Assembly: GCF_003334355.1 (NCBI RefSeq)
Contig: NZ_QOWP01000002.1
Source: Escherichia coli
Lineage (GTDB): Bacteria > Pseudomonadota > Gammaproteobacteria > Enterobacterales > Enterobacteriaceae
Strand: one strand, 5' to 3'
Length of the DNA: 64,000 nt
A program made the position numbers. Positions 9,001-15,000 of this stretch are shown here, piece after piece. Every line of letters begins with the position of its first letter. Position 1 is the stretch's first letter.

Positions 9001-12000
9001 CCAGGCGGGTTCTTGCGCGGTTAAGTCGGTCATATTGTTCACCATTGCAAATGGTCCGTGGTGACTGTCGGCGCAGTAAGCTTCGCGAAATAGATTTAGG
9101 AATAAGCGAAGAAAAATCCCTTTGCCGACAGGCGCAAATTAAATCTCGTCAGGTGTACGCAGGTTGGTTACGGCAATGCGTTCACCGCGCTTGCGTTCGC
9201 GCTCTGATTGCATATTGGCGCGATAAACGCCCTGATCGCCAACCACCCAGGAGAGCGGACGACGTTCTTTGCCGATAGATTCCTGCAACAGCATCAGTGC
9301 CTGCATGTACGCTTCAGGACGCGGCGGGCAGCCCGGGATATACACATCAACCGGGATGAATTTATCGACGCCCTGCACAACGGAATAAATATCGTACATA
9401 CCACCAGAGTTGGCACAGGCACCCATTGAGATAACCCATTTTGGTTCCAGCATCTGGTCATACAGACGCTGAATAACCGGTGCCATTTTGGTAAAGCAGG
9501 TTCCTGCAACCACCATCAGGTCAGCCTGACGCGGCGAAGCACGCAATACTTCTGCGCCAAAACGCGCCACGTCATGCACCGCGGTAAACGAAGTCACCAT
9601 CTCAACGTAACAGCAGGAAAGACCGAAGTTATACGGCCAAATTGAGTTTTTACGACCCCAGTTAACCATGTCATTGAGCTTGCCCATAAACACGTTTTTG
9701 TTAACTTCTTGCTCCAGAGGGTCGGTTACGATCTCCTGCTTTTGCAGGGGATAACGGTCGTTCTCACCGTTGGGATCTATGCGGGTGAGCGTATAATCCA
9801 TCTTAATGCCTCGCGGTTAGCGTTGACGATTAGCGATACTGTTCGTTTCCGGGTTCATACGCTCGCGGCGTGAACGCGCGGGCGTCCAGTCCAGCGCGCC
9901 AATACGCACCAGATAAACCAGACCTGCCAGTAACACAAAAATAAAAATTGCAGCTTCCACAAAGCCTACCCAGCCGCTTTCGCGGATAGAGGTTGACCAT
10001 GCGAACAGATACAGCGCTTCAACGTCGAAGATAACGAAGAACATGGCCACCAGATAAAACTTGGCGGACAGGCGTAAGCGGGCGGAGCCGACCGAGTCGA
10101 TACCGGATTCAAACGGCACGTTTTTCGACCTCGCGCGTGCGCGACCGCCTAAAAACCAACCGCCTACCAGCATCAGGCAACACAGGCCAATGGCAACGAT
10201 AAGAAAGATAGCGAATGCCCAGTGATGAGCGATGACTTCAGTGGATGTTGACATACTCATTGCTTACTCATCAAAAGTAGCGCCAGATTCACTGCTCTTC
10301 ACGGCAGATGGACGCCACATCGATTCATGGGGAGGAATAAAAAAAACCTTACAATCACTGTAGAAATTCTTTTATACAGCTAATTGATGTGGTCTTTTAC
10401 TCCTTTCTATAACCTTTTGTCAACTTTAACAAAAGTTTCTTCACATTAGTTTACATAATATCAACACCATTAGCATTTAATGCCCTTTCACCCCAGATCC
10501 TTGACGACTCCAGGATAATTAGATGTTGTTGAATCGTGTCCGTTGTGAAGCAATGGAAAAAATACGGGTCTATTTTGACAGGAATTTGTGTCGATTCCTC
10601 CCCCCAAAAGAGAGTATTTTCTTGATCTGTGACACGCTTTTGTCATTCCATAACAAAAACGCAGCAACAAATTTACGTATTTTTTAACATCATTGTAGCA
10701 GGTGATTTTTTTCAGGCGATTATTTGTGCGTTCGGGACGTGAATCTCTGGTGATTGAAAAATGAACAGCTTTGTGCGTTCTGCACTATGCGAGGAAGGAT
10801 TTTTACTAAAAAAAAGCCGCTGGGGTTTAAAACACCCCCAGCGGCTCGTTTTTTACACTATTGTCTCAGGAATTATCTATCGTCCGTCGATTACTCGATA
10901 TCCCTTTCAATCAACAATGAATCATCCCCTTCCGGAGCAGACATTGGGCTGTATTGCCACGGATTATGGTAGCTCTCCATCGCCTGATAGATCACCTGGG
11001 CCAGCTCATTATTACTGGACGGGTCATAGCACAGCAAATATTCGGTATCAGGTAGCGGCGGTAAGCCATCTACTCCACTCAGCACACGCAGGTCCGGGCT
11101 CATCATTTCAACCGGCCTTGCCGTCACGCCAAGACCGGCTTTCACTGCCGCACGAACGGCCGGAAGCGTCGAGGCGACATAAGCCAGTCGCCATGGAATA
11201 TCTGCTTTATTAAGCGTCGCCAGCACCATATCGCGAAACGGACTTGGATCATCCAGCAATACAAGAGGGATCGGCTCACCTTTTTGCAATACGTATTCCG
11301 CTGCGCAGTACCAGTGTGTTGGCGAGGTACGCAGGTTCAATGCCTTAAAGGTAGAAGGACGATGGGTGGTTACCATCAAATCCACTTCCTGGGATTCCAG
11401 CATTTCTGCCATATAGGCATTACGTTTAACGCGGACATCCAGCGCTAATTTCGGATAAACCGAACTCACGCGATTTAACAGGAAAGGTAAGATCGTATCG
11501 GCAGATTCATCTGAAGCACCGATAGTTAACACGCCCTGAAGATTACTGAACATTAATGATGAGCAGGCCTCATCATTAAAACGCAGGATTTTCCTGGCGT
11601 AACCAAGAAGTTGAATGCCATGTTCAGTTAACAGTTTGTTGCGACCGTAACGAGCGAACAGTTCTTTCCCAACGAGTTGTTCCAGACGCTGCATTTGCTG
11701 ACTTACGGCGGACTGAGTACGACACACAGCGGCAGCTGCGGCAGCAAAAGTGTTCAGATCGGCAACAGCAACAAATGTTCTCAGCAGATCGAGGTCGAGG
11801 TTAATTATCGGACGATTTGCACTTATCATATATTATCACTTACTGGCGGCTCATACTGAGCTGGTTAATGCTGTGCACACACAAACAAGCAATTCCATTT
11901 GTAATGTGCCTCCCTGGCAGTTTCATCCGGAACCCGGACGAAAGTAAAAATGCATATGAGTTGCACTAAAAAAGCGACTCACATTGTTCCGTTATAATGC

Positions 12001-15000
12001 CTGAAGTAGATCACAGAATATATCTTCAGGGATCGCATATCTATTAAGTTACTCACTCTTTTCTATTTATGACATGCGCGTGTTTGTATAAATGTAAATG
12101 TGAGTCCTTGTTCCACTCTCGTGCAGCATCGCTGGTCATACGCGAACACGTACAAACAGCAATGGTGAGGCGGCATCAAGAGCAGGGATCCGTCATTTAT
12201 GCGAGCATTTTACCCCAAAAACCTTTTATTTATAAGGGTCATTGCGAATTATCTGATGCAAAGTTATGTTATGTTAGGCAAAGTAATCTTCTATTATTAA
12301 TAAGCACATCAAAACCTTTTTGAATATTAAATAATAATTAATTAGCATCATCCTCATTCATTAATTCCGCTTAACAATAGTTTCACACCTTGCCCCCATT
12401 ACGACACCTCGGAAATCATCACGCTGTTAAACTCTCCGTAATGCGGAAATATCATCATCGCGTTTCATTAGTGAATTCTTAAATGAGGCATTTTCACACA
12501 ATTATCTTACAGATAAAAAAACCAGACTTACAATTAAGAATCAGAACAATTCACTATATAACATTGCATGTAAAGCATATACACCTCATTATTTTGTCAT
12601 TATTAAGTTATTAACAGCACAATCGAGCCTTCCCCTCTGGCAAAATCTTATTCTGCAGACCTTCAAAACACCGTCCTGGGGGAGTACATTGTTCTAAGCT
12701 GACTTCCACGGCAGGGAGTGGCGATAACAGCAAAAAAGGTCAAGATTCATGTCCCCCATTGAAAAATCCAGCAAATTAGAGAATGTCTGTTATGACATCC
12801 GTGGTCCGGTGCTGAAAGAAGCAAAACGCCTGGAAGAAGAAGGTAACAAGGTACTGAAACTGAACATCGGCAACCCAGCCCCGTTCGGTTTTGACGCGCC
12901 AGATGAAATCCTCGTTGACGTGATACGCAACCTGCCTACCGCTCAAGGGTATTGCGATTCCAAAGGTCTTTACTCCGCGCGTAAAGCCATCATGCAGCAC
13001 TACCAGGCTCGTGGCATGCGTGATGTTACCGTGGAAGATATTTACATCGGCAATGGTGTATCGGAGCTTATCGTTCAGGCAATGCAGGCATTGCTGAACA
13101 GCGGGGACGAAATGTTGGTTCCTGCACCAGATTACCCACTATGGACCGCGGCGGTTTCGCTTTCCAGCGGTAAAGCGGTGCATTATCTTTGCGATGAATC
13201 CTCTGACTGGTTCCCGGACCTCGATGATATTCGCGCTAAAATTACGCCTCGTACGCGTGGGATCGTTATTATCAACCCAAATAACCCAACCGGCGCGGTA
13301 TATTCCAAAGAGCTTTTAATGGAGATTGTGGAGATTGCACGTCAGCATAATCTCATTATCTTCGCCGATGAAATTTATGACAAAATTCTCTACGACGACG
13401 CTGAGCATCACTCAATTGCACCGCTGGCACCTGACCTGCTGACCATTACCTTTAACGGACTGTCGAAAACGTACCGCGTTGCAGGCTTCCGTCAGGGGTG
13501 GATGGTGTTGAACGGGCCGAAAAAACACGCCAAAGGCTACATTGAAGGTCTGGAAATGCTGGCTTCAATGCGCCTGTGTGCTAACGTTCCTGCGCAACAC
13601 GCCATTCAGACCGCGCTAGGTGGTTATCAGAGCATCAGTGAATTTATTACCCCTGGCGGTCGTCTTTATGAGCAGCGTAACCGCGCGTGGGAACTGATCA
13701 ACGATATTCCGGGCGTTTCCTGCGTGAAACCTCGTGGTGCGCTGTATATGTTCCCGAAAATCGACGCCAAACGCTTTAACATTCACGACGATCAGAAAAT
13801 GGTGCTGGATTTCCTGTTGCAGGAAAAAGTTCTGTTGGTGCAAGGGACGGCATTCAACTGGCCGTGGCCGGATCACTTCCGCATTGTCACGCTACCGCGT
13901 GTCGATGATATCGAGCTGTCTTTGAGCAAGTTCGCGCGTTTCCTTTCTGGTTATCATCAGCTGTAATCTTAATTTCACTGCCGGAGATTGCATCCGGCAG
14001 CGTTATCCCGCCACAATGACCTGATGATGTCATCATACGTAAGGTCACTATGAAACAGAGCCATTTTTTTGCCCATCTCTCCCGCCTGAAACTCATTAAC
14101 CGCTGGCCGCTCATGCGCAACGTGCGGACGGAAAATGTGTCCGAACACAGTTTGCAGGTAGCGATGGTCGCCCATGCGCTGGCAGCTATCAAAAATCGAA
14201 AATTTGGCGGTAATGTCAACGCCGAACGTATCGCTTTACTGGCGATGTACCACGATGCCTCAGAAGTGCTCACCGGCGATCTCCCTACTCCGGTGAAATA
14301 CTTCAATTCGCAAATCGCTCAGGAGTACAAGGCTATTGAAAAAATCGCTCAGCAAAAACTGGTCGATATGGTTCCGGAAGAGCTGCGGGATATCTTTGCG
14401 CCGTTAATTGACGAGCATGCATATAGCGATGAAGAAAAATCGCTGGTGAAACAGGCAGATGCACTGTGTGCATATCTGAAATGTCTGGAAGAACTCGCGG
14501 CCGGAAATAATGAATTCTTGCTGGCAAAAACGCGACTGGAAGCGACGCTTGAAGCGCGTCGCAGCCAGGAGATGGACTACTTCATGGAAGTATTTGTTCC
14601 CAGCTTCCATCTTTCGCTCGATGAGATTAGCCAGGATTCACCGCTGTAAGCAGCCGGAGTCTGCGTCGCATCAGGCAATAAGCGCCGGATGCGACATCAG
14701 GCTCTTGTCAAAACGGAAACAGCATCGGGATCATCACCACACAAACCGCCATCACGATAATGGTGAACGGTACCCCCAACTTCACAAAGTCACTGAAGCT
14801 GTAATTTCCCGGACCTAAAACCAGTGTGTTAACAGGTGAAGAAACCGGTGTCATAAAGGCGGCGGATGCTGCCATCGCCACGACCATCGCGAATGGATAA
14901 GGCGACACCCCCATCGTTTTGGCAGCAGCCAGCGCAATCGGAGCCATCAACACCGCCGTCGCGGTATTAGAGATAAATAGCCCAATAACCGCCGACAAGA

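Follow-up and report, generated by a model that had tools for sequence, protein, structure and literature searches.

What resides in the 919 base pairs (bp) that separate the divergently transcribed genes lrhA and alaA of Escherichia coli, and does so long a piece of AT-rich DNA carry a function of its own? The question arises for a 64,000-nucleotide (nt) stretch of contig NZ_QOWP01000002.1 (RefSeq assembly GCF_003334355.1), which we refer to as the window and to which all positions refer unless stated otherwise. An initial annotation, made from the sequence alone, had singled out this gap as unusually long and had proposed that it harbors a long lrhA 5' leader, multiple regulator sites, or an unannotated small RNA (sRNA) or small protein. 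LrhA stands at the top of the control networks for motility, fimbriae, rpoS and, as shown recently, CRISPR-Cas, and it is for this reason that the signals setting its level matter.

The analysis described here identifies the gap as real and as a control region already described for lrhA and alaA of E. coli, which is conserved and functionally important and was reported in papers published between 2009 and 2023. It very probably is a control region shared by the two divergent genes and operating at three levels, that is, control in the lrhA leader, transcription of lrhA, and the promoter and leader of alaA. What is added here is that the whole architecture, comprising the gap length, the distal lrhA promoter, the motifs of the proximal lrhA leader, and the alaA promoter with its hairpin, is kept across the Enterobacteriaceae.

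The lrhA-alaA gap is long, AT-rich and conserved

The boundaries of the gap are exactly those first annotated (Table 1). Among the 49 gene-to-gene gaps defined by the K-12 annotation in the first 50 kilobases (kb) of the window it is the longest, followed by the nuoA-lrhA gap (630 bp, window 10261-10890) and one of 337 bp, and 43 of the 49 are shorter than 250 bp, in keeping with the initial remark that most gaps stay below this length. The reported AT-richness is likewise borne out, with a GC content of 38% for the gap compared with 52% for the window and with troughs, when averaged over 100 nt, at 12200-12350 (23-31%) and 12450-12600 (26-29%), between which lies a bump of 40-43% at 12350-12450.

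In K-12 MG1655, whose coordinates are converted to window coordinates by subtracting 2,394,812, the gap also measures 919 bp, is without annotated feature, and differs by 5 single-nucleotide polymorphisms (99.5% identity). One of these (12154) lies in the lrhA leader, a second one (12201) is the base just upstream of the distal lrhA start, and the remaining three (12401, 12425, 12444) fall in the unconserved center of the gap. Shimada 2014 used the '920 bp-long lrhA-alaA' spacer to illustrate long spacers, reporting for it RpoD holoenzyme peaks in genomic SELEX (systematic evolution of ligands by exponential enrichment) along with sites bound by a number of transcription factors.

Every one of the 5426 complete E. 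coli genomes contains the region, 5384 of them with at least 80% of it in one place; 42 genomes lack a place of such coverage, 28 extra places were registered, and one case of an IS1 insertion was verified. For comparison beyond E. coli, the lrhA locus was fetched from 80 species-representative Enterobacteriaceae genomes (with genera including Escherichia, Citrobacter, Salmonella, Enterobacter, Kosakonia, Buttiauxella, Cedecea, Atlantibacter and Pluralibacter), and 79 sequences were aligned; mean identity denotes the mean fraction of these 79 that share the E. coli base. In all 78 species for which alaA could be placed on the fetched DNA it is the divergent neighbor of lrhA, and the gap spans 764-1013 bp. 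Since the gap is present throughout E. coli and similar in length in these 78 species, it is a conserved feature and neither a product of chance nor specific to the strain, so that the examination of Enterobacteriaceae which the initial annotation had recommended confirms both length and architecture. The alignment itself is a mosaic of conserved and unconserved segments (Table 1), and the steady length in the face of sequence turnover suggests that it is the spacing or length, rather than the sequence, which is under selection.

Two of the fetched loci deserve a comment as to their origin. The locus from CACSKA010000019.1, titled 'Chryseobacterium sp. 18061' (L060), is a typical enterobacterial alaA-lrhA locus (identity to E. 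coli of 78% for LrhA and 94% for AlaA); probably the contig is a contamination or the assembly has been mislabelled. The one from NZ_JAATUR010000019.1, titled 'Escherichia coli strain SCPM-O-B-8794' (L003), encodes a LrhA which is 94.6% identical to that of the window, compared with 99% for K-12, and probably belongs to a cryptic Escherichia clade and not to E. coli proper.

A conserved distal promoter and a long lrhA leader

Melamed 2023 reported a 371-nt lrhA 5' untranslated region (UTR), and on the minus strand position 12200 is where ATAAATGACGGATCCCTGCT begins, the sequence with which their fusion primer SM079 opens the lrhA fragment. The long leader anticipated by the initial annotation is thus real and was already published. 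Correctly spaced upstream of the published start, a σ70 promoter can be read from the sequence (Table 1), of which CTTATAAA and G(G/T)TAA(A/G)AT are kept in the alignment, with an identity of 0.95 for 12229-12235. A far-upstream start is accordingly accompanied by a matching promoter with hexamers kept in the 79 sequences, and since this promoter is kept in the alignment, the long leader is ancestral in the family. In the mechanism that we propose, transcription from this promoter has its published start at 12200 and yields the 371-nt leader.

When taken as a whole, the E. coli leader folds better than shuffled sequences (z = -2.8). Its sequence is kept only in the ~100 nt next to the AUG, whereas the distal ~270 nt vary but retain their length. 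Neither a consensus fold of the conserved proximal part nor an Rfam match, as expected for a riboswitch or another structured cis-regulatory leader, was found, with the distal part being too divergent to be aligned. A conserved proximal leader without consensus fold is more in line with binding sites in single-stranded RNA than with a riboswitch-like structure.

A shorter and older annotation of the lrhA 5' UTR, given in Potts 2017, ends at K-12 2406819 (window 12007) and is preceded by a -10-like TATATT, the ATAT core of which is partly conserved. Bilusic 2014 observed no start site at ~12007 in sequencing, yet detected lrhA RNAs of 1.5 kb and 1.25 kb. These sizes would fit transcripts that end at the lrhA terminator (~10815) and start at 12200 or ~12007, while the 1.25-kb RNA could instead be a processing product.

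Post-transcriptional control in the lrhA leader

As a layer of post-transcriptional control, the lrhA leader is experimentally established in K-12. Bilusic 2014 described an Hfq-bound 'ig-lrhA-alaA' RNA, recovered leader fragments of 150 nt and 350 nt by Hfq co-immunoprecipitation, and found that both the 1.5-kb full-length form and the 1.25-kb form of the lrhA messenger RNA (mRNA) are increased in an hfq mutant. In the supplement of Potts 2017, CLIP-seq (crosslinking and immunoprecipitation followed by sequencing) for CsrA yielded peak_226 at K-12 2406671-2406757 (-117 to -31), which is identical in sequence to window 11859-11945, and lrhA is listed there with significant changes in ribosome footprints and mRNA (+1.0 and +0.65). 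Three GGA motifs in the proximal leader had been spotted in the alignment before this peak was found, and the second and third are kept in most genera. The same supplement contains peak_225 (K-12 2405645-2405748; window 10833-10936), which spans the lrhA stop codon and a GC-rich terminator hairpin at ~10816-10856, in a region also annotated as nuoA 5' UTR.

Several sRNAs act on the leader as well. Melamed 2023 showed that UhpU, ArcZ and RprA repress a lrhA-lacZ translational fusion, and that McaS forms the most chimeras with the lrhA leader in RIL-seq (RNA interaction by ligation and sequencing), yet has no effect on lrhA-lacZ. For UhpU, the uhpU-M1 mutation abolishes repression and the compensatory mutation lrhA-M1 restores it; comparison of the lrhA-M1 gBlock with the window identifies the latter mutation as C to G at 11845, that is, position -16. 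A local duplex scan places UhpU at 11862..11841 with -19.9 kcal/mol, a score within the range of shuffled sequences. RNAduplex runs with whole sRNAs returned meaningless long duplexes and were discarded.

For the other sRNAs, the alignment offers candidate sites. CACAGC is at least 95% conserved in the 79 sequences, and UGCUGUGUGU is present in both RprA and McaS, so that CACAGCA is a candidate pairing site for these two sRNAs, as judged from sequence complementarity. Likewise, CCAGGGAGG may be where ArcZ pairs in E. coli, a match that was seen by eye and does not rank among the top ArcZ results of the local duplex scan. Between these two sites lies the AAAUGGAAUUGCUU box, with an identity of 0.85 over 11889-11898. 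An AUG within this box is unconserved and the 15-amino-acid open reading frame (ORF) that it opens is intact in none of 76 species, which argues for a binding motif and against a start codon.

Taken together, these contacts suggest that the conserved ~100 nt next to the AUG would serve as a docking platform, with CsrA bound to the GGA cluster. Along with Hfq, UhpU, ArcZ and RprA would pair in the proximal leader, UhpU (-21 to -12) adjoining the ribosome-binding site, and would thereby lower the synthesis of LrhA, while McaS also contacts the leader. Because LrhA represses flhDC, motility, rpoS control and fimbriae would be tied in this way to metabolic and envelope signals. The 'multiple regulator sites' of the initial annotation find their counterpart in the published CsrA CLIP peak, the Hfq co-immunoprecipitation, the contacts of UhpU, ArcZ, RprA and McaS, chromatin immunoprecipitation sequencing (ChIP-seq) for Lrp, and the RpoD genomic SELEX peaks.

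One might ask, however, if the Hfq-bound fragments of ~150 nt and 350 nt are more than mere decay products and function as trans-acting sponges of McaS, RprA, ArcZ or CsrA. The fragments are discrete and enriched on Hfq, the conserved segment carries several CsrA-bound GGA motifs, and the many McaS chimeras without regulation of lrhA-lacZ led the authors of Melamed 2023 to suggest a possible inhibition of McaS. On the other hand, total RNA contains the fragments in 'virtually undetectable' amounts, which speaks against a stoichiometric titration, the leader possesses no conserved 3'-end structure, and the literature reports no effect in trans. We thus regard the sponge as rather improbable, and favor control of LrhA synthesis in cis as outlined above.

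The alaA promoter and leader

Conservation within the gap is highest at 12640-12748, where a candidate Lrp-like box is followed by the promoter and leader of alaA. Across 78 sequences the promoter hexamers show little or no variation, and the spacer between them has a fixed length but a changing sequence. Mendoza-Vargas 2009 mapped the start of alaA (there named yfbQ) at -50 and assigned tgcaGACCTTCAAaaca as σ70 -35 box, which is the same as that found here. Kept hexamers at a spacing of 17 bp thus coincide with a published start at -50.

Just upstream of the -35 hexamer, 12641-12655 is a candidate Lrp-like box by similarity to the consensus, of which GATTTTG and neighboring bases are kept across genera. 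Lrp reportedly mediates the repression of alaA by leucine and alanine. Reading TGGCAAAATCTTATTCTGCA at ~12638-12657 as a σ54 promoter was rejected, the GG-to-GC spacing being 14 and not 10.

At the 5' end of the alaA leader, RNAalifold predicts a hairpin (Table 1). Over its 8 pairs, 88.6% of the alignment cells are paired, compared with 34-62% in slid controls, and 3 of the 8 pairs are changed on both sides (25 cells), an extent of covariation reached by none of 500 shuffles. No variation is seen among 78 Enterobacteriaceae sequences in the loop ACGGCA and the upper stem, and the lower stem covaries. In E. coli, the hairpin is the centroid structure, with the AAGG ribosome-binding site (12736-12739) unpaired; the entire leader is not unusually stable (z = +1.2). 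Table S6 of Mendoza-Vargas 2009 lists yfbQ with a Merino-Yanofsky 'translational attenuator', the old-version coordinates of which correspond to ~12692-12729 by our offset estimate. This reading was not adopted for the hairpin, as the Shine-Dalgarno sequence is not sequestered in the predicted fold.

According to the proposed mechanism, alaA would be read from its invariant σ70 promoter flanked by the conserved Lrp-like box, and the 50-nt leader would open with a small hairpin that, as far as can be judged from the predicted fold, probably either protects and stabilizes the 5' end or is a recognition site for a protein or sRNA. For this third layer, then, the promoter is established, and we infer a role for the hairpin.

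The AT-rich DNA upstream of lrhA

Combining ChIP-seq and RNA sequencing, Kroner et al. identified lrhA as a directly Lrp-activated target; the layer of lrhA transcription is established, though no more finely than at ChIP resolution. Matches to the Lrp consensus YAGHAWATTWTDCTR occur at five places in the gap with 2-3 mismatches, among them 12279-12293 (3 mismatches) and 12542-12556 (2 mismatches). The AT-rich DNA from 12236 to ~12640 most likely assembles a complex of nucleoid proteins and regulators that would set lrhA transcription and in which Lrp, the published direct activator, autoregulation by LrhA, and possibly H-NS would take part; besides Lrp, the partners recruited are probably other nucleoid proteins or proteins of LysR type. 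Two promoters predicted in Shimada 2014 were not adopted: TTAAGA-17-TATAAC for alaA (12534-12562) lies in an unconserved stretch, and CTGCCA-16-TATGAT for lrhA was not located by eye.

Studies in Serratia and E. coli found that transposon insertions in the spacer raise the expression of pigU and lrhA, respectively; the Serratia insertion is located 825 bp upstream of pigU, a position which in E. coli is equivalent to one next to the alaA promoter. A natural case is encountered in E. coli strain 503025, where a 768-bp IS1 element resides in the spacer (L002 2043-2810) with a 9-bp target duplication, AATTCCGCT, that corresponds to 12363-12371. This places the element ~165 bp upstream of the distal lrhA start and inside a conserved AT-rich box. 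Because spacer insertions are reported to raise lrhA expression, strain 503025 may, by analogy, be a natural over-producer of LrhA. A long-range silencing complex and read-out from the inserted element are the remaining candidates for the effect of such insertions.

An unannotated small RNA or small protein?

The effect of the insertions has also been taken as a hint that the AT-rich center (~12260-12640) might encode an independent, unannotated sRNA controlling lrhA. It was the authors of the Serratia pigU study who suggested regulatory elements 'such as sRNAs' there; moreover, full complementation in Pantoea required ~921 bp of upstream DNA, and promoter-like hexamers can be found at 12506-12534 and 12594-12623 (plus strand) and at 12277-12248 (minus strand). 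The number of promoter-like matches in the gap is, however, at the level of chance (3 compared with 3.3 expected from shuffles) in a consensus scan which missed both real promoters, as these score 8/12 or less. A scan of 10000-14200 against Rfam 15 with E-values up to 10 returned sub-threshold chance matches only, with the single one within the gap being CRISPR-DR55 (22 bits compared with a gathering score of 41). Terminator-like sites are absent from the E. coli gap, and no 20-nt bin of the alignment has one in more than 8 of the 79 sequences. Furthermore, identity is as low as 0.34 at 12401-12635, the conserved pieces are AT-rich boxes of 7-30 bp as are typical of protein sites, and the signal in Hfq co-immunoprecipitation comes from the lrhA leader only. 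We consequently view an independent sRNA as very unlikely indeed, and adhere to a protein-DNA complex in the AT-rich DNA. The search for Hfq-bound RNAs recommended by the initial annotation is answered in part: such RNAs have been published, the only short ones reported being the 150-nt and 350-nt fragments of the lrhA leader itself (Bilusic 2014), and they do not reveal an independent sRNA gene.

A small protein or upstream ORF fares no better. Several ORFs of 10-84 amino acids exist on both strands, e.g., an 84-amino-acid ORF at 12069-12323 and one of 28 amino acids at 11926-11840, the latter of which shares sequence with the conserved proximal leader and stops 10 nt short of the lrhA AUG. 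Yet the start of the 28-amino-acid ORF is kept in none of 76 species, both ORFs are intact in none of them, and the conserved leader has insertions and deletions whose lengths are not divisible by three. Among all 30 ORFs of at least 10 amino acids on both strands, the best one, with 10 amino acids, is intact in 12 of the 76 non-Escherichia species and most are intact in none, in agreement with the initial verdict that the gap holds no convincing ORF. That the gap encodes a protein can therefore scarcely be credited. Overall, the comparative data lend no support to the sRNA or small protein that had been speculated to hide in the AT-rich center.

Table 1. Genes, alignment segments and sequence features of the lrhA-alaA gap in window coordinates, with positions relative to the lrhA AUG in parentheses.
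Feature	Coordinates	Strand	Mean identity	GC	Remarks
lrhA ORF	10891-11829	minus			
alaA ORF	12749-13966	plus			divergent from lrhA
lrhA-alaA gap	11830-12748				919 bp
AUG-proximal lrhA leader	11830-11910		0.68	42%	
Distal lrhA leader	11911-12199		0.34	43%	
lrhA distal promoter segment	12200-12260		0.65	36%	
AT-rich boxes	12261-12400		0.50	28%	
Central spacer (variable center)	12401-12635		0.34	34%	sequence unconserved; length roughly kept
alaA promoter and leader	12636-12748		0.72	47%	
lrhA 5' untranslated leader	11830..12200	minus			371 nt; from distal start A at 12200 to AUG
Distal lrhA σ70 promoter	12207..12235	minus			-35 TTATAA 12235..12230; 17-nt spacer; -10 TAAAAT 12212..12207
Possible proximal lrhA start	12007..12022	minus			start ~12007; -10-like TATATT 12022..12017; older annotation
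UhpU pairing site GCCGCCAGUA	11841..11850 (-21..-12)	minus			just upstream of ribosome-binding region
CsrA-bound leader segment	11859..11945	minus			GGA motifs 11928..11926, 11913..11911, 11896..11894
CACAGCA	11869..11875 (-46..-40)	minus			near-invariant; candidate complement of RprA/McaS seed UGCUGUG
AAAUGGAAUUGCUU box	11886..11899	minus			holds third GGA motif
CCAGGGAGG	11909..11917	minus			candidate ArcZ site; complementary to ArcZ UUUCCCUGG
AT-rich region upstream of lrhA promoter	12236..12400			28%	short conserved boxes
Conserved boxes	about 12244-12255, 12291-12299, 12321-12341, 12359-12389				
Candidate Lrp-like box CAAAATCTTATTCTG	12641..12655	plus			just upstream of alaA -35; 2 mismatches to YAGHAWATTWTDCTR
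alaA σ70 promoter	12662..12690	plus			-35 TTCAAA 12662-12667; 17-nt spacer; -10 TACATT 12685-12690
alaA 5' leader	12699..12748	plus			~50 nt; start ~12697-12699; highly conserved
alaA leader 5'-terminal hairpin (predicted)	12700..12721	plus			stem 12702-12707/12714-12719, extendable in some species; loop ACGGCA 12708-12713

Evaluation of the proposed control region

A number of points weigh against a control region operating at three levels. Transcript ends and protein contacts are carried over from K-12, the gap of which is 99.5% identical, and are not from the strain studied here. In the lrhA leader, RNAalifold detects no consensus structure for the conserved proximal 136 nt, and the windowed duplex energies of UhpU, ArcZ, RprA and McaS are no better than those with shuffled leaders, so that, apart from UhpU, they provide no independent confirmation of the sites. 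In the AT-rich DNA, no Lrp site is mapped at base resolution, and the accumulation of consensus matches in the gap, which holds 7 of the 88 matches of the window (68 ± 10 expected) in 1.4% of its length, is partly inflated by AT-richness. The model also leaves unexplained why an insertion as far as ~825 bp upstream of the Serratia homologue raises expression. Finally, ~60% of the aligned columns of the gap are unconserved, and any role of theirs would be hypothetical.

The last point leads to the proposition that the gap consists for the most part of AT-rich filler without function or of what an old mobile element left behind, with relevance restricted to the two promoters and the proximal leader. 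The unconserved columns (11911-12199 and 12401-12635, identity 0.34) as well as the arrival of insertion elements in the spacer, as exemplified by IS1 in strain 503025, are what one would expect of filler. It is difficult to reconcile with filler, however, that in 78 species from many genera the gap keeps to 764-1013 bp despite sequence turnover, that the distal promoter, and hence the long leader, is kept in all aligned sequences, that the E. coli leader folds better than its shuffled versions, and that upstream insertions have phenotypes. We therefore give little credence to the filler hypothesis and retain the shared control region.

It is tempting to speculate further that the upstream AT-rich half (~12260-12660) is a long-range silencer of lrhA, that the alaA hairpin with its invariant loop is the recognition site of an RNA-binding regulator of alanine synthesis, and that the Hfq-bound leader fragments are sponges for sRNAs and CsrA. 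This combination, taken jointly, appears doubtful to us. The silencer may take the form of, e.g., a Lrp/H-NS filament bridging to the alaA promoter, and if it does exist, its disruption by transposons or natural insertion elements would switch LrhA on. Considering that the long leader and the spacer were described between 2014 and 2023, the finding opens no new question; it rather narrows the problem to two matters, namely silencing by protein-DNA complexes in the upstream half and the part played by the 5' hairpin of alaA.

Comparison with known systems

The lrhA leader resembles the long leaders of flhDC, csgD and rpoS in that several hundred nucleotides precede the coding region of a global regulator, are bound by both Hfq and CsrA, and are targeted by several sRNAs (UhpU, ArcZ, RprA and McaS), some of which are shared, with repression exerted near the ribosome-binding site. 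In contrast to those leaders, only the ~100 nt next to the lrhA AUG are conserved, no fold comparable to the inhibitory hairpin of rpoS was found, and UhpU, ArcZ and RprA repress lrhA while none is known to activate it.

Among the lrhA orthologues hexA, pecT, pigU and rovM (of Photorhabdus, Dickeya, Serratia and Yersinia, respectively), pigU likewise has alaA as its divergent neighbor in Serratia, with a long intergenic region of at least 825 bp in which insertions cause overexpression. The position of the ArcZ site differs between genera, as ArcZ pairs at -84 to -58 of Dickeya pecT and at -50 to -42 of Photorhabdus hexA, and control by UhpU is, unlike the features shared with the orthologues, reported to be Escherichia-specific in origin.

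When viewed as a spacer, lrhA-alaA is listed in Shimada 2014 as a long type-A spacer beside csgD-csgB (755 bp) and nanC-fimB (~1.46 kb), with which it shares AT-richness and binding of Lrp. It differs from these in that far fewer regulators are mapped at base resolution and that ~40% of it is transcribed leader. The alaA hairpin, for its part, lies within a few nucleotides of the 5' end, as do the stabilizing stem-loops of the ompA type, but the invariance of its ACGGCA loop and upper stem in 78 species is not needed for a purely structural role. In comparison with Merino-Yanofsky attenuators, the predicted alaA fold is distinguished by leaving the ribosome-binding site free.

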